A stretch of DNA of 58,013 bases from a virus (taxonomy: Duplodnaviria; Caudoviricetes), in IMG/VR virus record IMGVR_UViG_3300025671_000073, positions 1 through 58,013 of that record; one strand, given 5' to 3'. The notes under the pieces are model-generated. The model was not told where the DNA came from and searched no databases. It worked only from the letters and a program-made list of their open reading frames with translations. Made by a program: the position numbers and the translations under genes. Positions 2,223-48,585 of the stretch are shown one piece after another. Every line of letters starts with the position of its first letter. The stretch's first letter is position 1.

Positions 2223-4142
2223 ATGCCGCTTTCTAAACTGCAATTTCGCCCCGGCCTCGTGAAGGACGCGACGGATTACGCCAACGAGGGCGGTTGGTTT
2301 GACGCCAACAAGGTGCGTTTCCGGTTGGGGTTTCCGGAAAAAATTGGCGGCTGGCAAAAGCTGTCCTCTAGTTCATTTTTAGGCGTCTGCCGACGTCTGA
2401 TCTCGTGGAACGCGCTTTCTGGCCAGCTCAACATTGGCGTCGGTACAAACCTGAAATACTATGTCAACCAAGGTGGCCAGTATTACGACATCACCCCGGT
2501 CCGAGACACGACCGCCGCGGGCGACGTAACCTTTAGCGCAACCGACGGCTCGTCGACTATCACCGTGACGGACACCGCCCATGGCGCTCTGGCCACAGAC
2601 TTTGTGATCTTCAGCGGCGCCGTCAGTCTCGGCGGCACCATCACCGCAGACGTGCTGAACCAAGAGTATCAGGTTGTCAGCGTCGTTGACGCTGACACAT
2701 ACACGATAACGGCCCGTACGGCCGGAACCTCAATCTCCAGCATTACCGTCGACGGAGAGCTCGACCCAACCCCTGTTGTCGCCAACTCTTCGGACACCGG
2801 CAACGGCGGTGCTTCGGTTGTAGGAACGTATTTGCTAAACCGCACGCTGGACACCACGGTTCTCGGCACTGGTTGGGGTGCTGGTGCATGGGCCCGTGGC
2901 ACGTGGGGTTCTTCTGCCTCCACCCCGATTGTGGCGTCCCAAATCTCGCTTTGGTCGCATGATTTGTTCGGAGAGGATTTGATCATCAACCAACGTGGGG
3001 GTCCTCTCTACTATTGGGATACCAGCGTGGGAACCAGTAGCCGCGCGGTCCTCGTGTCGTCTTTGGGTGGCGCATCGGATGTTCCAGCGCAGGTCAACCA
3101 AGTCATGGTTTCGGACCGGGACAGGCACGTCATTGCGTTTGGTGCCGTGCCGCAGGGTGGCACGGACCTCGATCCAATGCTTATTCGGTTTTCCGATCAA
3201 GGAGACCCGGCTGACTGGACTGCAACCTCCACCAACACAGCGGGGGACTTGGTCCTCGGTACGGGGTCCGAGATCGTACGGGCTGTTGAAACACGTCAGC
3301 AAACGCTGGTTTTGACAGACAAAGCCGTCTACGCGATGCAGTTCCTCGGACCGCCATTTACGTTTGGCGTCACTCGGCTTTCGGCCAATACCAGCATCAT
3401 CGCTCCTACGGCAGCGGTGGCGATTGACGACACCGTGATCTGGATGGGCGAAGAAGAGTTTTTTATCTACGACGGCACGGTCAAGCCTTTGCCCTGCCCT
3501 GTTCTTGAATACGTGTTTGACACCATGGACCGAGCCCAGCCTTTCAAGGTGGCCTGCGGATCCAACACCGCCTTTGGGGAGGTGTGGTGGCACTATCCCT
3601 GCTCAATCAGCAGCGAGTGCGATCGATACGTCGTCTATAACTACGAACAAAACATCTGGTACACCGGCACCATGGGCCGCACAGCATGGCTGGATCGAGT
3701 GGACAAAAACAGGCCATTGGCTGCAGCGATGGACGGCTACCTCTACTACCACGAAACTGGCAGTGACGACGGCTCGACCAACCCGCCATCTGGTATTCAT
3801 GCCTATATTGAGTCCAGTCCAATCGACGTTGAAGACGGGGACCGGTGGACGGTGATCAACCAGTTGGTTCCGGATGTGACATTCCGTGACTCTGAAAGTC
3901 AAACCGCCTCTGTGGAGATGACCCTGAAAGCATATGACCACCCGGGAGAGGTGGTGCAGGCCACTGAAACGGGTAGTGTGATCCGATCCGCGGGTGGAAC
4001 TGTGGACACATACACGGACAAGCTGGACGTTCGGCTGAATGGACGTGCGTTTAGCCTACGGGTTGAGTCCACTGACCCGGGTGTATCTTGGAGATCAGGG
4101 GCGGTGAGGGTTGAGATTCTTCCCAATAAAGGGCGCCGCTGA
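2223..4142 (+). CDS. tail nozzle / packaged-DNA stabilisation protein (P22 gp10-like)
   Basis: 639 aa, beta-rich, lying between the fibres and the ejection proteins. Confidence 0.7.
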   Translation: MPLSKLQFRPGLVKDATDYANEGGWFDANKVRFRLGFPEKIGGWQKLSSSSFLGVCRRLISWNALSGQLNIGVGTNLKYYVNQGGQYYDITPVRDTTAAGDVTFSATDGSSTITVTDTAHGALATDFVIFSGAVSLGGTITADVLNQEYQVVSVVDADTYTITARTAGTSISSITVDGELDPTPVVANSSDTGNGGASVVGTYLLNRTLDTTVLGTGWGAGAWARGTWGSSASTPIVASQISLWSHDLFGEDLIINQRGGPLYYWDTSVGTSSRAVLVSSLGGASDVPAQVNQVMVSDRDRHVIAFGAVPQGGTDLDPMLIRFSDQGDPADWTATSTNTAGDLVLGTGSEIVRAVETRQQTLVLTDKAVYAMQFLGPPFTFGVTRLSANTSIIAPTAAVAIDDTVIWMGEEEFFIYDGTVKPLPCPVLEYVFDTMDRAQPFKVACGSNTAFGEVWWHYPCSISSECDRYVVYNYEQNIWYTGTMGRTAWLDRVDKNRPLAAAMDGYLYYHETGSDDGSTNPPSGIHAYIESSPIDVEDGDRWTVINQLVPDVTFRDSESQTASVEMTLKAYDHPGEVVQATETGSVIRSAGGTVDTYTDKLDVRLNGRAFSLRVESTDPGVSWRSGAVRVEILPNKGRR

Positions 4143-4369
4143 TGTCCCGTAACCTACCCCTTCCTTACTTCGCGGTGCCGCCGGCCGAATACAGCCAGCG
4201 GTATTTTGACGAACTGGTTCGGTCGATCGCCACCTATATGCAGCAAGAGCGAAATCCCGGCGAAGGCCGGTTCACAAAGGTCGTGCTTACGGATCTGCCG
4301 ACGTCGGCCACGGGCCTAGAACCGGGAACCCTTTGGAATGATTCTGGCACAGTAAAGGTAGTAACATGA
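4142..4369 (+). CDS. small virion protein
   Basis: Coupled start/stop; C-terminal LPTSATGLEPGTLWND motif typical of tail proteins. Confidence 0.7.
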   Translation: MSRNLPLPYFAVPPAEYSQRYFDELVRSIATYMQQERNPGEGRFTKVVLTDLPTSATGLEPGTLWNDSGTVKVVT

Positions 4370-8541: not shown

Positions 8542-11500
8542 ATGGACGAGGATTTTATACCGCCGGGCGCGTTGACCGGAGGCCCAAGCCTCGACCAAAC
8601 CCCTTCAGCCGAAGACTTTATCCCGGCAGGGGCGGTGGCAGGCGATGCCATGTCAGGTGAAACCGCAGAGGACCAGCCAAGCGCTATTGCAGAGTTTGCT
8701 CGCGGGGTCGCGTCTGCTCCGGTTGAGTTTGCCCGAGGCTTGGGGGAGCTGGCCGCCCTCGGCATAGATGCTGCGTTTGACACAGACTACGTCGACGATG
8801 TGTCGGCTGCGTTTGATGCGGCGGATCGTTTTGTTGGTACTCCCACGACACCCGTCGGCACCACCACCCGAGACCTACTGGTGTTTGGTGCGGGCGCCAT
8901 TCCTATTGCAGGATGGATCGGGCGTGCCGGGCAGGTCGCAAAGACCGGTAGGGGCCTCGGTGCTACGAGCAGGTTTATGAAGTCCGCCGAAAGCTTTGGA
9001 CGTTCCAAGGCTGGTAAACAGCTACTTGGCAACCGAGCCAAGGTCCTTGGTGCAACGGCCTTGGCCTCCGGTGTTTATGACGCCGTGGTGTCCTCCGCTG
9101 GTCGTTCGACTCTATCCGACCAGTTCGAGTTTTTGCCGGAGGCGTTGAAGACCGAAAAAGACACGGGACTAACTGGTCGAGAAGAGGCCTTTCGCCAATT
9201 CCGGAACCGGGCACGTCAGGGCGCAGAAGCGGCGGCACTAAGCTCAGTTTTTGACACCGCCCTGCTGGGCCTTGGTCGTGGGTCAAGGACCCTCGGCAGC
9301 GCCCCTGTCATCGGCCCCGCACTTTCCGGCACTGCCCGCGCCACACTCAAGGGCTGGGACATTCTCGGGACGTATGCAGGCAAGCTTCCCGGCGCCGAAA
9401 CGGTCAAAAAGCAAGCGGTCCGATATTTCGCACCCGGTGGTGGTTTGGCCCCTCAGATCAGGGCTAACATCCGAGAAGTGCAAGGCATATCCCGGTCGCT
9501 TCAAAATGAGATATCGAACGCGCTTTCGCGTTACGATCGCGCCAGCCGCAAGGTTGTGAAAGCCTCCGCCAAGCGGTCGGACAGGGCCGACTTCATGAAG
9601 CAGATCGAGCGGGACGTCTTGCGCTACCTAGATGCACCCACCGGCTCACCTCTGGCCACGAAGTATGGCGATGATTTTCAAAAGGCTGTAGACGATCTCG
9701 TTCAAATCGACACCGACCTAACCGACCTGTTGATCAAGAACCTAGAGGATATTGTGGGCGGCTCACCCATGGTTTCGGGAAAGGCGGGTATACCTGAAGA
9801 GATGCTGCCGCTGGGCGCGCAAAAAGAAAAAGCCCGGGCTGTTTTGGAAATCGTAAAAGCCAACCACGAAGCGGGGAAGAACCATCTGACACGGGTCTAT
9901 CAACTTTATCAGGACCCCGAACAGCTGTATCGCTCCCTCGGCGGCAAGAACCTGATGGAAAGCCCGCAGTTCAAGGCTGCGGAAGACCTGCTTGTTCGGC
10001 TGAAAAAGACAGAAGCCAAGGGTCCGATCACCGACGAGTATGCGCGTGCGGCCGCACAAAAAACGCTGCTCGACATGCTGAACTTGAAACCGATCGGTGA
10101 CGTGGACTTAACCCCCGAAGTAATTCAAAAGCAAATAAACAAAAGGTTGAATCAAATCCGCAAGGAGGTTCTCGGGGAGCAGCGCGGCGTCACCCTGCAG
10201 GACACCCCCATCTTTAAGCTTGAAAAAGGGATACTGCAGGAGCGAGTGCCCCTTATGGAATACGCCCCAGTGCGCGCATTGCTTGGGGAGTTTACCGACC
10301 CCAGAGAAAGACTGGGCTACATGCTTGATCAGATGGCCACACTCAACACCAGTCTTCGGTTCTACAACCAGCAAGCCCGTACGGCCATACCCGCAGCCGA
10401 GGGGTTGGCAAGAATTGATTCCGGCCTTCGGCCGGCATACGTTTATTTGCCCGGGGCAAAAAGCGGGAACATCGAAAAAGAGTTCGCGGATCTTTCTGTG
10501 GCCATTGGCGCAGGGAAATCAAACCAAGCGCTGCTGGACGATGCCGCCACAAAGCTGCGGGAGGAGGGTTACATCAAGCTTGGTGATGAAGACCTGAATG
10601 ACATTGCCGGCGGCCGGTTTGGCGCCTTGAGCGGCATGTACGTTCCGAAAGAGCTCTACGACAATTTGAACGCCCCGCTGCAGTTGAACATGAACCCGAT
10701 CAGTCAGGTCGGCGCCATGCTGAACCAGATGAAGGGCCTGACGCAAAAGATGACGATCGTCCCGAACCCCGCCTCTCGGGTCCGGGACATCATAGGCAAT
10801 AAACTCATGACCATCGCCAGCGGCAACACGGCGTCCGGATTTGGCCAAACCGAGAGCCAGTCTTTGCTGACAATCTTTCGGGGCCTGCAGGGTCTCGACC
10901 AAGAGGGGACGGACGCGCTGGCGAGGAAGCTCGATCTTGTCGGGGTGACAGACAGCAACGTCCTTTTGCGCACCCTGCAGGGCATCCAGAAAGAGGGTCC
11001 GAAGTTCGGGGCCCCGCAGCGCCTTCGCTCAGCCATCGAAACACTGGAGACCAAAACGCCGATCATGGCACCGATGCTGGAGTTTTTTGAGAAAACCACA
11101 CAGGGGGCGGACGCATTGGCCAAGGCGCGCGTCCTGCTGAGCGAGGAGGCAAAGTTGCGCGAGCTTGTAGGCTCCGTTGCCAATAGCGCTGACGACGAGC
11201 GCGTAGTGTTCAGCTGGCTTGAGCGTTCAGGCCTCGTGGATCGCACACGATCTGAACTGGACTTGGTCGGTGACTTGGCCGGCGCCGGGCGCGGCGGTCG
11301 CGCAAAAAGAACGCTGGACTCTTTTGAAGTGGCTGCCGCCGATAGAACGCGCAAGTTTATGCCCACGTATAGTGAGATCGGCTTGGCCGTTCGATCCGCG
11401 GACCGGCTTTTGCCTTTCGGTAACTTCACCTCCTTTGCCTCCGAAAACATCCGCAACATGGGGAACATCCTAGAGCAGGGGGTGAAGGAGCTTGCCGCGC

Positions 11501-15613: not shown

Positions 15614-16055
15614 GAACGTACACTCCTGCTTCCATGAACATTTCCATCGACAGCGTCATATCATCCGCCCAGCGCTCGACAAAGGCCGGCTCTGGTTTCG
15701 GCCAGCAGACATGCTTGACCCCATTCTGGATCACCATGGCTGCGCATTGGGTGCAGCAGGGGTGTGTGCAGAACAGGGTCGATCCGTGGAGCGGGGCCGT
15801 GGCAAAGGCCATAGCGTTTTTCTCCGCATGCACGGTCATCTTGAGCTTGGTTTCGCGGTCATGCAACCGGGCGTGGCTGTCTTGGACGCCGCGAGGAAAC
15901 CCGTTGTAGCCGGCCGAAACAATGCGCCGTTTGTCGTCGAAGATCACAGCGCCAACCTTGGTACTTGGATCTTTGCTCAGCTTGGCAACATGTTTGGCCA
16001 TGTCCACGGCCCAGTCCCAAAGGCGCCGCTCTTCGAACGAAAACTCAGATGTCAT
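15603..16055 (-). CDS. dCMP deaminase
   Basis: SKDPSTKVGA, GYNGFPRG, HAEKNA, PCCTQC zinc motifs. Confidence 0.92.
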   Translation of the reverse strand: MTSEFSFEERRLWDWAVDMAKHVAKLSKDPSTKVGAVIFDDKRRIVSAGYNGFPRGVQDSHARLHDRETKLKMTVHAEKNAMAFATAPLHGSTLFCTHPCCTQCAAMVIQNGVKHVCWPKPEPAFVERWADDMTLSMEMFMEAGVYVHVG

Positions 16056-17559
16056 ATCTATTCCTCATACCGCTTTGAATTACATGCAGGTTGTGCTTAG
16101 CACGTGTGAAACCCACATAAAAGACCCGATGTTCGTCGTCCGGGAACCGAGATTCGACGGCCGCGCGTGTCGACCCAAGGTCCACGGCCACATTGTCGTC
16201 TTCCCCGCCCTTGTTGCTGTGGATTGTTCCGACCTTGATCCTTGGTTCTTGGGTCACGTCTTCACCCCGGCGCTCAAGCGCTCGGATGTAAGTTCTCTCG
16301 CGATCGTTCATCTTAATCACGGACAATGCATCTGCATTGTCACCGGCCTGTAGCCCAAAGCTACCTTGCAAATCGGAGATGTTATATGCGATTTGCGGGT
16401 CTGCTGCTTCAAGAAGTTTCTTGGCCCCGCGTTGCAGTACGCCGGGCGCCGTCTGTGCATACAGCTTCTTCATCTCTCCAGCGTAGATGCTGCCGCCACC
16501 GGCCAAGTGCCGCCACAGTGCGATGGAGTCTGTCAGCGATTCCCGAATGCTGCGCCGGCCGTTGATGCTGAACATAAACCCGTCGTCTCGCAGTGACTCG
16601 CCCCATTGTTGAGCCATGTAGTTCGCGCGCGTCATCAAGGTCCATGAACCTTGGGTCAGGTCAAGGAACTCCCGGTCCGGTTCAAACACCACCCTGCCCT
16701 CTCGGGTGGTTGGGTGGTAGGTTTTTGGAACTCGGTCCTTGATCCTGTGGACGATGCGCTGGGACAGGTCGAAGACGGAACGCGGAAGGCGGTAGCTCTG
16801 CTCGAGGATCTGGATTTTGGGCGAGCACTCAAGAAACTGCCTCACATCAACACCCGCCCAGCGGTGGATGGCTTGGTCATCGTCGCCGGCGAAGTACACC
16901 TCTTCGGCGTTGTCCATGAGCTTTTTGACCATGGCCCACTGCAAGGGGACAAGGTCCTGAGCCTCGTCGATAATCAACATCTTGAGCCGGGGCGCCTCGC
17001 CGAAATCAACGAACATGCTCAGCATGTCGACGAATGTCACCTTGCCGAGCTGCTGTCGGTAGACCTGCAGCAGGCTGCTGATCTTTCGCAGCATGGCAAA
17101 ACTCAGATCGTAGTCATCTGCATCCCGGAACTCCTGTTCCAAGGAGACCATCCGCATGGTAGCCCGTTCGATGATCCGAAGATACTTGTCCCCGCCACCA
17201 GCGGCGCTGTTCACGAGGCCGCTCAGGTCGTCGAGGTCCGCCTTCTCCCCATTGATCTCCATGCCCAGCTCATCGGCAAAAGCCCGCCAGTCGGCAGCGC
17301 TCATCACGTCCTCCTTCTTGAGGCCAAGCAGGTGGAAGCCGAGGGCGTGCAGGGTCTTGAAGTACGGCATGTCTTTGGGTAGGAAACCGAACTCTTGGGC
17401 TGCGCGATCGCGGGCCTCGTTGACAGCCTTTCTGGTGAAAGAAAGAAAGCCGATTTCCCACGGAGAAATTCCTCGGGACAAGGCCTCGTTGATAATCTGC
17501 ATTAGGCGATAGGTTTTGCCGCAGCCGGGAGGTCCTAAAATCAGGGTGCTATTTCGCAT
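16045..17559 (-). CDS. UvrD/REP-like SF1 helicase
   Basis: GPPGCGKT, IDEAQD, GDDDQAI, QSYR, TIHSNKGGE, YVGFTRA. Confidence 0.92.
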   Translation of the reverse strand: MRNSTLILGPPGCGKTYRLMQIINEALSRGISPWEIGFLSFTRKAVNEARDRAAQEFGFLPKDMPYFKTLHALGFHLLGLKKEDVMSAADWRAFADELGMEINGEKADLDDLSGLVNSAAGGGDKYLRIIERATMRMVSLEQEFRDADDYDLSFAMLRKISSLLQVYRQQLGKVTFVDMLSMFVDFGEAPRLKMLIIDEAQDLVPLQWAMVKKLMDNAEEVYFAGDDDQAIHRWAGVDVRQFLECSPKIQILEQSYRLPRSVFDLSQRIVHRIKDRVPKTYHPTTREGRVVFEPDREFLDLTQGSWTLMTRANYMAQQWGESLRDDGFMFSINGRRSIRESLTDSIALWRHLAGGGSIYAGEMKKLYAQTAPGVLQRGAKKLLEAADPQIAYNISDLQGSFGLQAGDNADALSVIKMNDRERTYIRALERRGEDVTQEPRIKVGTIHSNKGGEDDNVAVDLGSTRAAVESRFPDDEHRVFYVGFTRAKHNLHVIQSGMRNRYDI

Positions 17560-27242: not shown

Positions 27243-28983
27243 GGCCTGACCCTCGGCCTCGGTGACGACGACAACACCCTCGTTTCGTGGCACTGGGCCA
27301 TGCTGTCAGGATAGGTTTGCCGGATCGGCTCGTAGATCGCGGGCATTGCATCGCCGCAGGCTTTCATGCTGGGGAACATGATGACGCTCTCGGCGTCCTC
27401 GCCCAGCACGGGGTAGGTCAAGATCAGGAAGGTCCAGAAGGTCATGTGTCGGTGCCTTTCAGTTCTGCGAGCGAAGAACAATCGCAGCAAGTGCTACAAT
27501 AGCCCCTACCCAAGTGCCCAAAAAGAAAGCCGACAAAACGACCCAATTCGGGTGACCTTGTTTTACGATGGTGACTGGATTAGTCATCGGTCTTGGCCTC
27601 CAGTTCTGCGAGGGTGGTGCGGGCGTCATGGATTTCGTCGTCCAAAGGCGACATGCCCCGCTCGTATTCATCTTTGCGGAACAGATCATACTCCTCGACC
27701 ACGTTGCGCAAAGCCTCCACCGCCTTCGCCAGCTTGGCGTCCAGTTCTTCGCAACGCTTGCACGTCGCCTTGCTCAAGTCCCACTTAGCCATACGCTCAC
27801 TCTCGCCCCTGATTGCAGTCATGATTGCAGCGGGTCATCCCACCAACCCCGCCAGCTTCGCGCCCTCGTAGAGCGCCTTAGCATCTTCGAACGCACGGCG
27901 TGTCATGCCGTGGTCGATGATGCAGTCAATGTCGGCGGCTATCTCTTGCAACGCCGCCACAGGCGCACCGTCCTCGTTGTCAGCGGCGCGGATGACGCGA
28001 TAGATCGCGTCATTCAATTCGTGCAAGGCCTCGGTGTAGTCATTCATAGCTGTTTCTCCCGGCTCAGCATCTTGGCAAGGTCAAGGATGTCTTGGATGTT
28101 GCACTCTTCAACCTCGAATACCGCCCACCAATCGCCATTGGGCGTCTGGCGGATGCCCTTCAGCGGGCCCTTATGACGTAGGCAGTCGTTGAGCACATCA
28201 GCTTGGTCCGCGGCCCACGCCGCGAGGTTCTCCAGCTTCTCGTCTATTGTTTGCATTGCAGTTCCTCCTTCAGTGTCATGTATTTCTCACGCAGCCGTCG
28301 GCAGAGCTCGAAGTCGTAACCGCGGTCACGGCTCTCCTCGGATTGCCACTCGCGCCACGCAGCATCGAGCCTTGCTTCTTGGTCCTCCTCCGTGGATAAA
28401 CTCATCTCATAGGCCTCCGATACGTCGCCAAGCACATCCTGAAGATAGTCAGCCTCCAAGAGGGCACACGCGTCCAACATACGGCAAAAGAATGCGGCCT
28501 CGCCCGTTTCCCTGTTGCCGACCGCGATGCCGATTACCTCATACGGAAAGCTGTCCGGCATCTTGTCGTTGATCTCATCAATCTCGTCCCCAAAAATCGG
28601 CTCGATCCCGGCTTCCCAGTCATAAGAATGTGCCATCAGCTTCCCCCCATGAGTTGGCGCGCCTCATTGGTGATCCGCCCGGCCAAGTACCGAGAAGCTA
28701 GGTCCTCGGGCGTCGTGCCGGCCGTGGAGGCCAAGGCATGCAGGAGGCGCAGGTCCGCCTCGCCGAGGGGGACAGAGACGCCGGTAGGGGGATGGTCCTC
28801 CTGATACCGCTGCAGGGCCTCCTCGGCGCAGGTAATGCAGCCCACGCCCACATAACCTTGGTCCTTGGACGCCTCGTGGGCGTCCCAGTAGACCTTGATC
28901 AGCTTGGACAGGTATTGGATGTCGAACGGATGCGATTCGTCGGCAATCGCGCGGGTCAGGTCGGACAGGGTTTTGTAAGTCAT
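27236..28983 (-). other. run of ~7 small coupled hypothetical genes (27236-27445, 27459-27587, 27580-27792, 27835-28047, 28044-28256, 28244-28636, 28636-28983)
   Basis: Overlapping stop/start codons and RBSs; no recognisable families. Confidence 0.6.
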
Positions 28984-29082
28984 GCTTGCTCCTTTGCTTG
29001 ATACACACCGGACCAAAATGCAGGGGCTCTTGGCTCTCGGACCTTGGTCCGGTGTAAAGCCCCGTGAGGAGGGCTTGGTTGT

Positions 29083-29111
29083 AGGTTAGTTGTTGGTGTG
29101 GGTGGTGTCAA
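29083..29111 (-). promoter_or_regulatory. sigma70 promoter for middle genes
   Basis: TTGACA-17-TAACCT, followed by leader hairpins at 29057-29076 and 29005-29055. Confidence 0.75.
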
Positions 29112-29139
29112 GAGGGTGGTTCTTGGTTCTTGGTTCGTT

Positions 29140-34293: not shown

Positions 34294-35126
34294 TGTTTGC
34301 GAACACCACACAACATGAGTCGTGGTGTATCCCGAACCCGCACTGAATTTTTTACAATGTCAAAGTGACCTGTGCCGCCGAAGGCACACAGGTCACTCAG
34401 CTCGGGTTTTTCGTCCGCCGTGACCTAGCCACAAGCACCTTTATCGTGAGGTGTCGGTGCTCCGCTGACACGCGAGACCACGGACGGAAAAACCCGGCAC
34501 TTTGACATTGTAAAAAATTCGGGGCCATCTGGAAGATACACTACCGCACTCATGTTGTTGTTGTGTGAAGAAACACGGTCGACGAGGGCAGGGCAGCGAC
34601 AAAGGCGAACTCAACTCCGTGGTTCAAGTCCCAAGCAGATCCCGCCCCAAGCGGGATTGCAGGGACGCAGGACCACGTAGTTGTGAGAGCCGGAGCATTG
34701 GTTGATGAAGCACAGCCATGGGGTGTCGGTTGACGGCGCGGGTGCATGTCCCTGTCGCTGACGACCCTTGTGCAACGATTAGGCGACGACGCAACCGACA
34801 CTTCATGGTTGTGTGAAGTCATCCAATGTGGACGCTGCCCTGTCCGAGGAGATCGTTTCGCCAAGACGTGCACCGGTCTTTTTACTCGCAACGCTGGCCA
34901 ACGTAGCCGGAGGATCCAAGGACAGGCAATGTCCTTGGTCGACTGCCGTTCGACGACGGCTCGATGACCGAGGGCTCGATGCCCTCGGTCATCGAATCAG
35001 GATGGTTGCGCGCGACTAGCGCGCTCCGCTGATACAACCTCTCGGGGGTTACTCCAGCTGTTCAGTGTCCGCGGCAGCGGGTCGGAAAGGGGGTCGACCC
35101 CCCTTTTCGGCCCCCCTCCGGTGGAG
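34294..35126 (+). ncRNA. large multi-domain structured element (ncRNA or folded ssDNA)
   Basis: Nested inverted repeats, including a perfect 23-bp pair (34345-34367/34498-34520), many further stems and G-T wobbles on the + strand; no credible ORF. Confidence 0.7.
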
Positions 35127-35232: not shown

Positions 35233-35252
35233 AAAAATATGCGCATATTTTT
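35233..35252. promoter_or_regulatory. perfect 20-bp palindrome (operator-like)
   Basis: AAAAATATGCGCATATTTTT, 13 bp upstream of a -35 box. Confidence 0.6.
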
Positions 35253-35265
35253 TCATTCCGACTTG

Positions 35266-35294
35266 TTGACAACCCACAATCATTCCGCTACATT
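35266..35294 (+). promoter_or_regulatory. strong sigma70 promoter
   Basis: TTGACA-17-TACATT. Confidence 0.85.
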
Positions 35295-35300
35295 CAACCC

Positions 35301-35473
35301 CAGAACCAAGGTCCAAGACCCGAGCGCCGAGGCCCCAGAGGCCCACTGAGCGCCCATCCCGTCTCCGAGGCTCCCGAAGCCCGGACCTTGGTTCTCCCAT
35401 GCTCAACCGGAGACTCTCCTCCCTTGTTTCCGGTATGCCTCACCTGCCCCGGCCTTTGCGCCGGGGCTTTTTT
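35301..35473 (+). ncRNA. putative small RNA with anti-SD loop
   Basis: Lies between promoter and terminator; 13-bp stem (35302-35314/35383-35395); hairpin 35406-35434 with CUCUCCUCCC loop. Confidence 0.7.
35446..35473 (+). terminator. intrinsic terminator
   Basis: GCCCCGGC/GCCGGGGC stem followed by T6. Confidence 0.85.
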
Positions 35474-35514
35474 CTGGTAGGGTTTGCGGGACTTGACCCT
35501 CGGACCTTGGACCT

Positions 35515-36768
35515 ATGGCTGATCGAAACCCCCAAATCCCCGACCTCGGCGAAATGTTGGGCCTCCCTTCCGAGGAGCTGCAACGCCCTGTTCAACGGGG
35601 GGACCTGCTGGATTACTACCTTGGCCCGACGGGTATCCCCGACAGGTTGCGGGCGGCGAACGAGGTGTTGAACCCGATTGTTGCCCTCTCGGATGCAGGT
35701 CAGGACCTTCGCCGTGGGGATTATGTTGGCGCGCTGACCAACACGGCTGCGGCCGCAGTTCCAATTGTTGGCGGCCGCATGGCCATCAAGGCCGCTCGTG
35801 GTTTGCCGACACTTGCTCCCCGACAGTATGACGAGGCAGCCTCTGCGGTGACGGAGACCCTGACGGGCGTGACATCTCCCAAATCAACTTCTGCGACGGA
35901 CATGACGCGCCGCCAGTTTTTGACGGGTGTAGCCGCCGCTGGCGGCACTGCGGCCATGGGCCCAGACATTGTGGAGTTGGCCCGAAAGGCCGCCCCGGAC
36001 ATTGCGCGGCAGGCAGGTCCGTGGGAGGCGTTGGTCGCCCGAGGCAAAAACATTTCGGACAACCCCATACCGGGCCCGTTTTCAGACGCCGCTAACAAAA
36101 TTCCTTACGAGGAGTTAATGCGGATGGAGGAACTTAGACGCATCGAACTTGACGATCTGCAGGACGATGTCTATGAGACGGCGCTTTCCGACCCCGAGGG
36201 TTTCGCAGACACTATTTTGCGGAAAACCGACCCCGAAGACACGCTGGAAAAAATCGGAATCAACCGGCGGATGCAAGATGTTTTTCGAAGATCGGGCCTA
36301 GATTACTATAATCTTTCGCAAGGCGCTTTAAGAGAATACCCGGAGGAGGTCGCAAAGAGGGCCAATGTTTCAGTGGAGGACGTGAGCCGATATCTTGAAG
36401 AGATGGACGAGGACTATCAAGACTACCTTGCGATGAAGGGGTACGACAGGCTCGTAGATTACAACCCGGGACTTGCCGAAAAACTGGATAGAACCGCTAT
36501 CGGGATTGCTCGGGACAAGCTTCTTGACGGCGATATTGACGAGGTGAACAAGCTTATCGGTAATGCCCCTACGCAATTTATAGGCGTGAGCAATGACGAT
36601 TTTCAGCTTTGGAAGGCGCTCGAACAAAAGCGCCGTCAACTGGCGGATGACCAAATTGAAATGGCTCTTGACGTTGGCGCAATCGACGACGAGATGGCGG
36701 AGAATCTCAGAAAAGAACTGAGTGGACTCAGTGCGTCGGATATTTTTTATGAGACAGGCGCTTTTTAA
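35515..36768 (+). CDS. hypothetical (probable virion) protein
   Basis: 417-aa ORF with an internal MTRRQFLTG motif. Confidence 0.7.
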   Translation: MADRNPQIPDLGEMLGLPSEELQRPVQRGDLLDYYLGPTGIPDRLRAANEVLNPIVALSDAGQDLRRGDYVGALTNTAAAAVPIVGGRMAIKAARGLPTLAPRQYDEAASAVTETLTGVTSPKSTSATDMTRRQFLTGVAAAGGTAAMGPDIVELARKAAPDIARQAGPWEALVARGKNISDNPIPGPFSDAANKIPYEELMRMEELRRIELDDLQDDVYETALSDPEGFADTILRKTDPEDTLEKIGINRRMQDVFRRSGLDYYNLSQGALREYPEEVAKRANVSVEDVSRYLEEMDEDYQDYLAMKGYDRLVDYNPGLAEKLDRTAIGIARDKLLDGDIDEVNKLIGNAPTQFIGVSNDDFQLWKALEQKRRQLADDQIEMALDVGAIDDEMAENLRKELSGLSASDIFYETGAF

Positions 36769-36779
36769 AGGCCCACTTG

Positions 36780-36808
36780 TTGCAAACCCACAACCCGTAA
36801 CCTATAGT
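36780..36808 (+). promoter_or_regulatory. sigma70 promoter
   Basis: TTGCAA-17-TATAGT. Confidence 0.75.
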
Positions 36809-36835
36809 CTCTCCAGTCAACCACTGGAGAAACCC

Positions 36836-37114
36836 ATGAACATGTTCAAGAACGACCCTGAGTTTGCCAAGATGGAAGAGCAGGCCAACGAGCAGCTGGA
36901 AAAGCTGCTGAGAGCCACGGTCCAAGATTATGAGGCCTATATGGCAGATCGGGACGCCGCGGCCGCCGATATGTCGGCATTGGTCAAGCAGGCCAAGGAA
37001 AACGGCCTGAACATCAAGGCCTTCAAGCGGTTGATCGCGGAGCGGAAGCGAGATCGCGAAGAGGTGATCGAAGAGCAGCGGATGCTGGAACAGTATCGTA
37101 GTCTTTTGTTTTGA
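36836..37114 (+). CDS. gapR: GapR/DUF2312-like DNA-binding protein
   Basis: AKENGLNIKAFKRLIAERKRD...EEQRMLEQY pattern. Confidence 0.75.
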   Translation: MNMFKNDPEFAKMEEQANEQLEKLLRATVQDYEAYMADRDAAAADMSALVKQAKENGLNIKAFKRLIAERKRDREEVIEEQRMLEQYRSLLF

Positions 37115-37165
37115 TTCATGTTATAGGTCCCCGGACCACGATCCGCGGTACGGGGACCTTGGACC

Positions 37166-37552
37166 TTGGAGCTATCAAGACAGGCTATAGGCCGAGCCGG
37201 TGAGTTTCAGGCTGCCACGATATTCGAACGACACGGGATAGTAACCACGCACGTGGATGTCTACGGCGTGGATCTGTGGTGTGAAACCCCCTCTGGCAGG
37301 CGGGTGACGGTGCAGGTCAAGGCCACGCAAGGGCCGCAGGCCGTTGACGGGCATCACGCCACTCCTCGATACCACTTCAACCTGCGGGCGGGCGATCATC
37401 CCGCCGACGTCTACTGCTTTGTCGCCTTGGACAAGGCGCTGCTTCGGCTGTTCAGTGCGGGGGAGCTGCCGAAATCCACGTCCAAGAAAATCGGGCAGTC
37501 CGGGTTCAGTCAGGCAAATATGGAAATGGACATTAAGCGTTACCTTTACTGA
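37166..37552 (+). CDS. PD-(D/E)xK endonuclease
   Basis: GRAGE, GVDL, VQVK, DVYCFVALD. Confidence 0.7.
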   Translation: MELSRQAIGRAGEFQAATIFERHGIVTTHVDVYGVDLWCETPSGRRVTVQVKATQGPQAVDGHHATPRYHFNLRAGDHPADVYCFVALDKALLRLFSAGELPKSTSKKIGQSGFSQANMEMDIKRYLY

Positions 37553-47024: not shown

Positions 47025-47939
47025 ATGGCTATTTCTCGCGCACAACTTGCGAAAGAGCTCGAACCGGGTCTCAACGCTCTGTTCGGCATGGAGTATGGTC
47101 GCTACGAGAACCAGCACTCCGAGATCTACACCACCGAATCTTCGGATCGTGCATTCGAAGAAGAAGTGATGCTCTCGGGCTTCGGTGCTGCTCCGACCAA
47201 GTCGGAAGGCTCGGCGATCACGTTCGATGAGGCGACTGAGGCGTACACCGCGCGCTACAACCACGAAACCGTGGCGATGGCGTTTGCACTGACCGAAGAG
47301 GCCATTGAGGACAACCTCTATGACCGCCTCGGCAGCCGCTACACCCGCGCGCTGGCACGTTCGATGGCCCACACCAAGCAGGTGAAAGCCGCGGCTGTGC
47401 TTAACAGCGCCTTCGATGGTGGTGCAACGGCAATCGGCGACGGCAAAGCTCTCTGTGCAACGGACCACCCGCTCACCAGCGGCAGCACGTTTGCCAACGA
47501 GCCCACCACTCCCGCCGACCTGAACGAGACGTCGCTTGAGGACGCCCTGATCAGCATCGCCGGTTTCGTTGACGAGCGTGGTCTGAAGATTGCCCTTCGC
47601 GGCATGAAACTGATCGTGCCTCGCCAGCTGCAGTTCGTGGCCGAACGTCTGATGGTGTCGAACCTGCGGGTTGGCACGGCAGACAACGACGTCAACGCGC
47701 TGAAGTCCATGGGCATGCTGCCCGAGGGCTACGTGGTCAACGACTTCCTGACCGACCCGGATGCATTCTTCATCAAGACGGATGCTCCCCGCGGCTTCGT
47801 GCACTTTGAGCGCACCCCGCTCAGCACGGGTATGGAAGGAGACTTTGACACCGGAAACATGCGTTTCAAAGCACGGGAGCGTTACAGCTTCGGTGTTAGC
47901 GATCCGCGCTGTGTGTTCGGTTCGCCGGGCGCTGCGTAA
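47025..47939 (+). CDS. major capsid protein
   Basis: MAISRAQLAKELEPGLNALFG...ARERYSFG; AAGGAGG RBS; terminator downstream. Confidence 0.92.
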   Translation: MAISRAQLAKELEPGLNALFGMEYGRYENQHSEIYTTESSDRAFEEEVMLSGFGAAPTKSEGSAITFDEATEAYTARYNHETVAMAFALTEEAIEDNLYDRLGSRYTRALARSMAHTKQVKAAAVLNSAFDGGATAIGDGKALCATDHPLTSGSTFANEPTTPADLNETSLEDALISIAGFVDERGLKIALRGMKLIVPRQLQFVAERLMVSNLRVGTADNDVNALKSMGMLPEGYVVNDFLTDPDAFFIKTDAPRGFVHFERTPLSTGMEGDFDTGNMRFKARERYSFGVSDPRCVFGSPGAA

Positions 47940-47992: not shown

Positions 47993-48072
47993 GTTTGCAG
48001 CTCATGTATCCTACCCCCATCCCTGACAGCCCGCATGGTGCGCGCTGACACTAGCCACGACAGGAGACTCCA

Positions 48073-48585
48073 ATGGCTAATACGACTTTCTCTGGGCCGG
48101 TACGCTCGGAAAATGGTTTCAAGTCCATCACCAAAAACTCGACGACCGGTGCAATCACCGAGATCACGACCATGGGCGGAGCTCCGGTAGCTCTCGCTGA
48201 CGGCGATGTGACCCTGACCAATGCGACCCACAGCGGCCGCGTTCTGGTTGTTCCGGATGGCGGACAGGACAACACCTACACGCTGCCCACCCCGGTCGCA
48301 GGTGCAATGTTCACCTTCGTCTACGGCGGCGCAGCAGCTGACGCCACGGACTTTATCGTGGACGCAGGTTCGGACACCAACTTCTTCGTGGGCAATGTCG
48401 CATTCAACGACACCGACGATGGCGCAGCCTCTGTTGTTTTTGCTGACGGCGATTCGAACAGTGTTCTGCAGGTCAATGTTCCGGGGTCCGCGGTGATCAA
48501 TGTGATGGCCAAGGACGGCACCAACTGGTACGTCTGGGGTTCGGTCACAGGCGCCACTGCCCCCGCCTTCTCCGACCAAGCGTAA
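48073..48585 (+). CDS. virion structural protein
   Basis: MANTTFSGPVRSENGF, beta-rich. Confidence 0.7.
   Translation: MANTTFSGPVRSENGFKSITKNSTTGAITEITTMGGAPVALADGDVTLTNATHSGRVLVVPDGGQDNTYTLPTPVAGAMFTFVYGGAAADATDFIVDAGSDTNFFVGNVAFNDTDDGAASVVFADGDSNSVLQVNVPGSAVINVMAKDGTNWYVWGSVTGATAPAFSDQA

Follow-up and report, generated by a model that had tools for sequence, protein, structure and literature searches.

In phage lambda, the lysis and morphogenesis genes are headed by the PR'-6S RNA-tR' unit, whose strong promoter gives rise to a short, structured transcript that ends at a terminator. The cuckoo RNAs of alphaproteobacteria are built of two to four adjacent hairpins of similar size and, as described in PMC4615179, carry a conserved anti-Shine-Dalgarno (anti-SD) loop on a covarying stem; for one of them, NfeR1, occlusion of ribosome-binding sites (RBSs) by the anti-SD loops has been demonstrated experimentally (PMC10746234). 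A phage antisense RNA that covers an RBS is also on record, namely, the c4 RNA of P1 and P7, whose target, ant, is linked to it in cis (PMC12197685). Few phage-encoded small RNAs (sRNAs) are known, and the examples that we take from the same review come from E. coli phages and prophages (PMC12197685).

Here, we describe a candidate sRNA gene that invites comparison with each of these systems. It lies in a complete-looking 58-kb viral record (IMG/VR record IMGVR_UViG_3300025671_000073), the whole of which (58,013 nucleotides) was analysed and is called the window below. The large terminase subunit encoded there and its counterpart in Pelagibacter phage HTVC027P are 61% identical, the DNA polymerase shares 52% identity with that of phage 023Pt_psg01 and 51% with that of HTVC023P, and a GapR-like protein has a relative in one deposited phage only, a Ruegeria phage. 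The phage kin and the GapR-like gene point to an alphaproteobacterial setting. The stretch is contained in 22 runs, all of them DNA metagenomes labelled freshwater.

Structure of the candidate sRNA gene

An earlier note on this DNA, made by reading the letters alone, had proposed a self-contained phage sRNA with an anti-SD loop. The analysis bears this out: a promoter, a structured RNA and a terminator are present, and the loop is conserved and predicted to be exposed on a covarying stem. The features of the gene and of the region directly behind it are as follows (positions in the window).

35233 to 35252, no strand: A/T-rich tract 5' of the -35 box, in the window a 20-bp palindrome
35266 to 35294, plus strand: promoter TTGACA-17-TACATT, from motif match and conservation
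35302 to 35395, plus strand: SL1, a composite stem-loop closed by AGAACCAAGGUCC / GGACCUUGGUUCU, from folding
35406 to 35434, plus strand: SL2, the anti-SD hairpin with loop UCUCCUCCCUU, from folding and covariation
35436 to 35441, plus strand: linker UGCCUC between SL2 and the terminator, conserved and mostly single-stranded
35446 to 35473, plus strand: intrinsic terminator GCCCCGGC-CTTTGC-GCCGGGGC followed by T6
35502 to 35517, plus strand: heptad motif GGACCTTGGACCT directly 5' of the ATG (35515) of the 417-amino-acid (aa) ORF
35515 to 36768, plus strand: 417-aa ORF, in the variable slot that separates the sRNA terminator from the GapR-like gene
36780 to 37114, plus strand: second promoter of the same type (TTGCAAACCCACAA ... 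TATAGT, 36780 to 36808) and the GapR-like gene (36836 to 37114)

The perfect 20-bp palindrome reported upstream of the promoter, AAAAATATGCGCATATTTTT, is indeed there. It is unique in the window even when three mismatches are allowed, and none of 100 shuffled sequences contained one. The perfect palindrome is also private to the window, as relatives have at the same place only an A/T-rich, UP-element-like tract, which is an A-tract in some and a dyad, AAAAATA-N7-T(A/G)TTTTT, in others (assigned partly by eye). The promoter that had been proposed matches at 10 of 12 positions; two promoter-like sites occur between 34000 and 37000, compared with 0.9 ± 0.8 in shuffled sequences, and in the promoters of all five relatives aligned, TTGTTGACA, the spacer tetranucleotide ACAA and the -10 box TA do not vary. 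Transcription would start near 35302. The terminator, likewise found as described, pairs from 35446 to 35467 with eight G-C pairs around a 6-nt loop and is followed by T6. It is strong in all members of the family described below, with seven to nine G-C-rich pairs (including one G-U pair in L114) and six or seven U residues.

The element is therefore predicted to be an sRNA gene of about 172 nt (approximately 35302 to 35473) that would be transcribed from its own sigma-70-type promoter and end at its own intrinsic terminator; with these two signals and no conserved ORF, it has the make-up expected of an sRNA gene. A 177-nt RNA spanning 35300 to 35476 folds at −76.5 kcal/mol, compared with −55.8 ± 4.0 kcal/mol for shuffled sequences (z, −5.18), and none of 200 shuffles was as low.

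Members of the family and database searches

Proteins encoded near the element were used to find related contigs, and two contigs, L005 and L008, then proved by blastn to contain it. From the 3' half we built a covariance model (R1), which was rebuilt from its own matches to give model R2; R2 recovers seven members at 67.6 to 94.4 bits, the next best match scoring 17 bits or less. The members are the window, L149, L114, L060, L005, L062 and L008, i.e., the window with three IMG/VR records and three metagenome contigs. They comprise six distinct sequences, all of one lineage, and have in common the anti-SD hairpin, the UGCCUC linker (UGCCUA in L062) and the terminator.

Pattern scans of viral contigs matched nine and six stretches, of which two and three, respectively, were true and the rest were due to chance. 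At least 119 metagenome stretches and at least 120 genome stretches were also matched, and among those listed only L149 and L114 are members. As these two came from the at least 119 metagenome matches listed, the family probably has more than seven members. No exact match to a 27-nt pattern was found in the viral contigs, blastn against 50,697 phage records returned no match, and the model gave none of ≥45 bits in 023Pt_psg01 and DSL-LC04, the closest deposited phages scanned. A search with the neighbouring 417-aa protein led to two loci, each of which ends at the start of the gene and hence has no upstream DNA.

Weak model matches of 13 to 17 bits were obtained in L094, L086, L261, L263, L279, L268, L051 and L004. 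Separately, a pattern of the terminator alone led to two loci of another phage lineage (L312, 1996 to 2120, minus strand; L313, 11260 to 11386, plus strand) that have the same terminator sequence, preceded by a small hairpin with the loop AUCUCCUC.

Mimicry of a host sRNA, which the earlier note had entertained, finds no counterpart in these searches: there is no look-alike among 151 sampled alphaproteobacterial genomes (no match of ≥45 bits) or among the at least 120 bacterial genome loci from the pattern scan (none above 17.4 bits). Three matches of 25 to 32 bits in a roseobacter genome turned out, on reading, to be ordinary terminators or 3' ends.

At gathering thresholds, Rfam has nothing at the sRNA. 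Its sole match in the window is Mu-gpT-DE at 48021 to 48075 on the plus strand (59.6 bits; gathering threshold, 49), just behind the major head protein gene (47025 to 47939). A full-text literature search returned no description of such a phage RNA. The element represents an uncatalogued RNA family, known so far only in one lineage of uncultured phages of the HTVC023P/027P type.

A conserved loop on a covarying stem

The hairpin on which the original proposal centred has a 9-bp stem (35406 to 35414 and 35426 to 35434) that exposes the 11-nt loop UCUCCUCCCUU (35415 to 35425). Across the six distinct sequences, eight of the nine pairs of SL2 have changed on both sides, and 95.1% of the alignment cells remain paired; the alignment behind these counts was fitted to the model, and its terminator helix is out of register (40.8% of cells paired). 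The covariation score of the whole structure is 0.476, compared with 0.152 ± 0.042 for shuffled alignments, none of 500 of which reaches it, and with 0.036 to 0.128 when the pairing partners are slid. As a check that is independent of the alignment, members folded singly all show SL2, the linker and the terminator in this order, at z scores of −3.6 to −5.4.

The loop behaves differently from its stem. The loop is 11 to 13 nt long, and its core, (C/U)CUCCC followed by UU, is fixed in all members. The anti-SD six-mer has a predicted mean unpaired probability of 0.87 to 1.00 in all six distinct members. The linker may provide a second seed.

SL1 is far less constant. The 13-bp closing stem claimed for the transcript exists, its 13-nt arms AGAACCAAGGTCC (35302 to 35314) and GGACCTTGGTTCT (35383 to 35395) being 100% complementary, but it is built from a motif that recurs throughout the genome and is missing in one member, L060. 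In the window, SL1 forms a composite stem of 94 nt, and L060 lacks it altogether; the interior of SL1 varies in sequence and in length, from approximately 20 to 70 nt among relatives, and its base has uncompensated mismatches in L005 (one) and L062 (three), as judged by eye. Both arms are copies of the motif GGACCTTGG, which is frequent across the lineage. Within SL1, an unpaired CCUCCC occurs in L008 and L114 only. As L060 retains only the promoter, SL2, the linker and the terminator, these four parts appear to be the essential ones, and we take the 3' half of the RNA to be its functional core.

Predicted action and targets

The conservation of an exposed anti-SD loop on a stem that covaries freely favors a repressor of translation that acts in trans. 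We propose that the element founds a new family of phage sRNAs that occlude RBSs in trans, a reading that we prefer and to which we give about an even chance of being correct. The exposed C/U-rich loop would pair with the purine-rich SD region of mRNAs, perhaps joined in this pairing by the linker, and the paired loop would keep the 30S subunit off the mRNA, so that translation would be blocked.

Early phage genes with GGAG-rich RBSs had been suggested as the targets to be silenced, and comparison with controls gave this suggestion no specific support. Averaged over 50 phage start regions, the pairing energy of the loop is −7.71 kcal/mol, and loops shuffled to the same composition pair equally well (−7.64 ± 0.63 kcal/mol), as does a generic 16S tail, whose mean of −7.89 kcal/mol is at about the level of the loop. 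Leftward genes (−8.04 kcal/mol; n = 18) and rightward genes (−7.52 kcal/mol; n = 32) do not differ. Pairing with control windows 44 to 72 nt upstream of the starts is weaker than that with the start regions (−5.30 kcal/mol), and the strongest duplexes across the whole window lie inside genes. The best single pair joins the linker UGCCUCAC to GUGAGGCA, which precedes the helicase gene (16045 to 17559); it reaches −15.6 kcal/mol and is unexceptional against the genome-wide background. Since no phage start region is favored, host mRNAs would be the likelier targets.

Genome context and a possible role as a leader

Leftward from 34309, the genome carries small genes and then helicases, a primase and the DNA polymerase, and rightward from 35515, it carries the 417-aa ORF, the GapR-like gene, a DUF4365-like gene, a cell-wall hydrolase, the large terminase, the portal and the major head protein with other head genes. 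According to this gene order, the sRNA is the first transcription unit of the rightward arm, and it sits in a divergent control region of 1.2 kb.

Two other observations were made in this control region and at its edge. A 606-nt ORF-poor stretch (34520 to 35125, plus strand) lies just 5' of the sRNA promoter and folds at −319 kcal/mol, compared with −241 ± 8.6 kcal/mol for shuffles (z, −9.0). Its last approximately 200 nt (34915 to 35112) are almost invariant in L114, L005 and L008, with conservation far above that of the sRNA, and form a multihelix consensus with three compensatory pairs that ends in GGGGGTCGACCCCCC and a T run. No Rfam family matches the stretch, which may be a large noncoding RNA or else serve as a site on the DNA, for example, as an origin or for packaging. 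Finally, an inverted repeat of about 20 nt, TTTTTTACAATGTCAAAGTG (34347 to 34368 and 34497 to 34518), contains two divergent TTGACA boxes and separates, as judged by eye, the structured region from the leftward gene ending at 34309.

The slot behind the sRNA terminator varies. It is empty in L005 and L008, where a promoter and GapR-like unit follows the terminator directly; it holds the 417-aa ORF in the window, a large ORF in L062 and other ORFs in L060, L114 and L149, at the following positions.

L060, 196 to 715: post-terminator ORF
L062, 374 to 1953: post-terminator ORF
L114, 908 to the end of the contig: post-terminator ORF
L149, 193 to 1044: post-terminator ORF

From this distribution, the slot looks like a hot spot of gene exchange. 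Residues 129 to 149 of the 417-aa ORF form a stretch resembling a twin-arginine signal in the middle of the protein (18.9 bits, below the cutoff of 22.7), and the post-terminator ORFs of L060 and L062 contain HExxH motifs, as seen by eye. In the assemblies, the DNA contigs show nothing but sequence variants and joints: contigs of two runs join other sequences at 35475 and 35522, and one DNA contig has a different CCUCCC-bearing sequence joined onto the sRNA terminator.

Because the gene heads the rightward arm and is followed by a different gene in most relatives, a role as a leader is a serious rival to action in trans, although we consider it unlikely on the whole. The unit would then act in cis, as an attenuator-bearing leader comparable to lambda PR'-6S RNA-tR'; most transcripts from its promoter would end at the terminator, and regulated read-through would express the variable ORF together with the lysis and packaging genes; the short RNA itself would have no job, and the conserved loop would be a site for antitermination or for another protein. 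That the unit stands before the hydrolase, large terminase, portal and major head protein genes agrees with such a role. The interval from the terminator to the start of the 417-aa ORF has no promoter-like site, and the ORFs of L060, L062, L114 and L149, which begin 17 to 50 nt past the terminator, have no promoter recognizable by eye, which suggests that read-through matters for them. The more remote relatives L006 and L007, which score 17 and 13.5 bits with the model, have at a comparable position a short unit of like make-up, namely, a promoter, a hairpin, CUGCCUCC and a terminator, directly 5' of hydrolase-like and terminase genes, and a conserved loop on a variable stem would also suit recognition by a protein.

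Against this, the terminator is strong in every member, no antiterminator gene was recognized (short of a systematic search), and a second promoter of this type is present past the terminator in L005 and L008 and, in the window, at position 36780. The genes behind that promoter, among them the GapR-like gene of the window, are therefore independent of read-through, and in L005 and L008 the full second promoter makes the sRNA unit self-contained.

Some details of these neighboring units are recorded here. The SD sequence GGAG of the GapR-like gene lies inside a hairpin (CTCCAGT-caacc-ACTGGAG, 36811 to 36829), 7 nt before the ATG, so that an anti-SD element is present in cis; a similar hairpin is kept in L062 (both by eye). 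In L005, the sRNA is preceded by a tiny gene and a second TTGACA box; a 40-aa ORF with a zinc-ribbon-like CxxC...CxxC pattern (4061 to 4183, minus strand) lies there between the conserved promoter and the sRNA.

A heptad motif across the lineage

The window has 17 copies of the motif CCAAGGTCC, compared with 0.5 expected; 12 of the 17 read GGACCTTGG on the plus strand, and the heptads are often in tandem. Examples of the sites in the window are as follows.

1517, 7989, 14453, 35306, 35383, 35502, 37154 and 37161: motif sites

The five related contigs richest in copies, which include L059, L062, L005 and L008, have four in 3 to 11 kb, and unrelated loci have one at most. Copies are placed at promoters or gene starts in the window (35502, 37154 to 37169 and 29122) and in L059, L062, L114, L317 and L318. 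They stand directly 5' of the start codons of the post-terminator ORFs in the window, L062 and L114; in every relative seen, they also precede and overlap the TTG with which the DUF4365-like gene begins.

Two further units are of interest here. At 9250 to 9399 of L318 (minus strand), and also in L317, an A-tract and the TTGTTGACA promoter are followed by the 5' sequence CCAAGGTCCAAGAACCAAGG and an AAGGAGG RBS, without the sRNA body. Because the same promoter and 5' sequence thus occur on an ordinary mRNA, the 5' arm of the sRNA is part of a promoter/leader module. A second promoter-leader unit lies in the window itself at 28975 to 29135 on the minus strand, where CCAAGAACCAAGAACC is followed by TTGACA-17-TAACCT; its leader (z, −3.0) has a hairpin with the loop CCUCAC and a 16-bp hairpin that contains the heptad motif, followed by an AAAGGAG RBS and the ATG.

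The conserved pieces could accordingly be modules that bind proteins or act at the level of DNA, with the GGACCTTGG heptads as operators or leader motifs and the RNA as a by-product, an insulator or a decoy for an RNA-binding protein. Such an explanation, which we regard as quite improbable, draws on the enrichment of CCAAGGTCC at promoters and gene starts of the window and related contigs, on the ordinary mRNA that L318 places under the same promoter and 5' sequence, and on SL1, whose basal mismatches in L005 and L062 are uncompensated and which L060 lacks. It covers SL1 only, however, since a covarying SL2 with a fixed unpaired loop is a signal at the RNA level.

Another possibility joins the two halves of the RNA in one regulator. 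An exact 12-mer of the 5' arm, CCAAGGUCCAAG (CCAAGGTCCAAG), is antisense to 37158 to 37169, and the sRNA gains 9.6 to 9.7 kcal/mol when it is cofolded with two heptad start regions, compared with 4.9 to 6.9 kcal/mol for three others. The 5' arm might then read (GGAYCUU)n arrays while the loop damps RBSs of the host type, with SL1 as a self-masking switch. In this purely hypothetical scheme, heptads would replace ordinary SD sites of the variable ORF and of the DUF4365-like gene (37166) and would make up a translation code private to the phage, with a second class of targets. We regard a two-part regulator of this kind as a long shot.

Coding potential

The earlier note had seen no convincing ORF in the transcribed part, and we concur: six ORFs of 25 to 119 aa overlap the element, and no frame is conserved. 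None of the four overlapping ORFs tested matched a Pfam family at an E value of ≤1, and the homologues, of 181, 160, 156, 126, 132 and 89 nt, have no common frame or peptide. It is thus barely credible that the element codes for a small protein, or that it arose by chance and has no function: the high G+C content leaves frames of 36 to 119 aa open, but the peptides are not conserved, the tested ORFs have no Pfam family, the homologues differ in length by amounts not divisible by three, and chance would have to account for seven members with covariation.

Comparison with known systems

The best near-miss in Rfam is the Burkholderia anti-hemB RNA (RF02837; 25.1 bits against a gathering threshold of 49.5), for which the aligned part comprises a hairpin with the loop UCUCCUCCCU and the terminator. 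The Betaproteobacteria toxic sRNA (RF02278; 20.8 against 50 bits) and SorX (RF02784; 20.8 against 46.6 bits) fall equally short of membership. The likeness to these three RNAs is one of design, i.e., a hairpin with an anti-SD loop followed by a terminator, and not of membership.

With lambda PR'-6S RNA-tR', the phage gene shares a short unit, predicted to be terminated, directly 5' of lysis and morphogenesis genes. It differs in that several members have a further promoter behind the terminator, in that no Q-like factor was identified for the phage unit and in that the anti-SD loop has no lambda counterpart. The c4 RNA is alike in being a phage RNA whose loops pair around an RBS, which is a prediction in the present case; unlike c4, for which the target is dedicated, no dedicated target was found for the phage sRNA, and its seed is a generic anti-SD sequence.

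The closest parallel is with the cuckoo RNAs (ar14 in Rfam), such as CcsR1 to CcsR4 of Rhodobacter sphaeroides and NfeR1 of Sinorhizobium meliloti, to which the earlier note had likened the element. Membership in that family did not hold when the Rfam models were run: the phage RNA has no ar14 match, one canonical hairpin and the exact cuckoo motif in one of six distinct sequences. The ar14 model (RF02344; gathering threshold, 58.8 bits) is absent from the 17 Rfam matches with E values of ≤10 between 35000 and 35700, and its sole match in the record, of 6.1 bits, lies elsewhere, at 10547 to 10653. The phage RNA has a single compact hairpin, SL2, instead of two to four. The cuckoo loop CCUCCUCCC is present exactly only in L060; counted by eye, the window and L008 agree with it at eight of nine positions, L062 and L114 at seven and L005 at six. 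The loop consensus of the phage RNA is (C/U)CUCCCUU, and to this are added the UGCCUC linker and an optional long 5' stem. With regard to origin, cuckoo genes occupy chromosomes or plasmids of Alphaproteobacteria, often with a DUF1127 gene at their side. The phage RNA is encoded in a viral record, has its own promoter and is neither adjacent to a DUF1127 gene nor cut from a UTR, in contrast to the arrangement with which PMC8034643 deals; a search for DUF1127 among ten neighboring proteins gave no match.

Beside these differences stand the likenesses. Both kinds of RNA show compensatory change in the stem and a C/U-rich anti-SD loop, and RBS occlusion is presumed to be their common mode of action. 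The phage family is a conserved, covarying one. The phages that carry it are environmental and uncultured, and the cultured phages nearest to them infect Pelagibacter. If it acts in trans, the RNA would give the phage a compact means to lower host translation, and it would do so with an anti-SD loop, as alphaproteobacterial hosts themselves do in their cuckoo RNAs.
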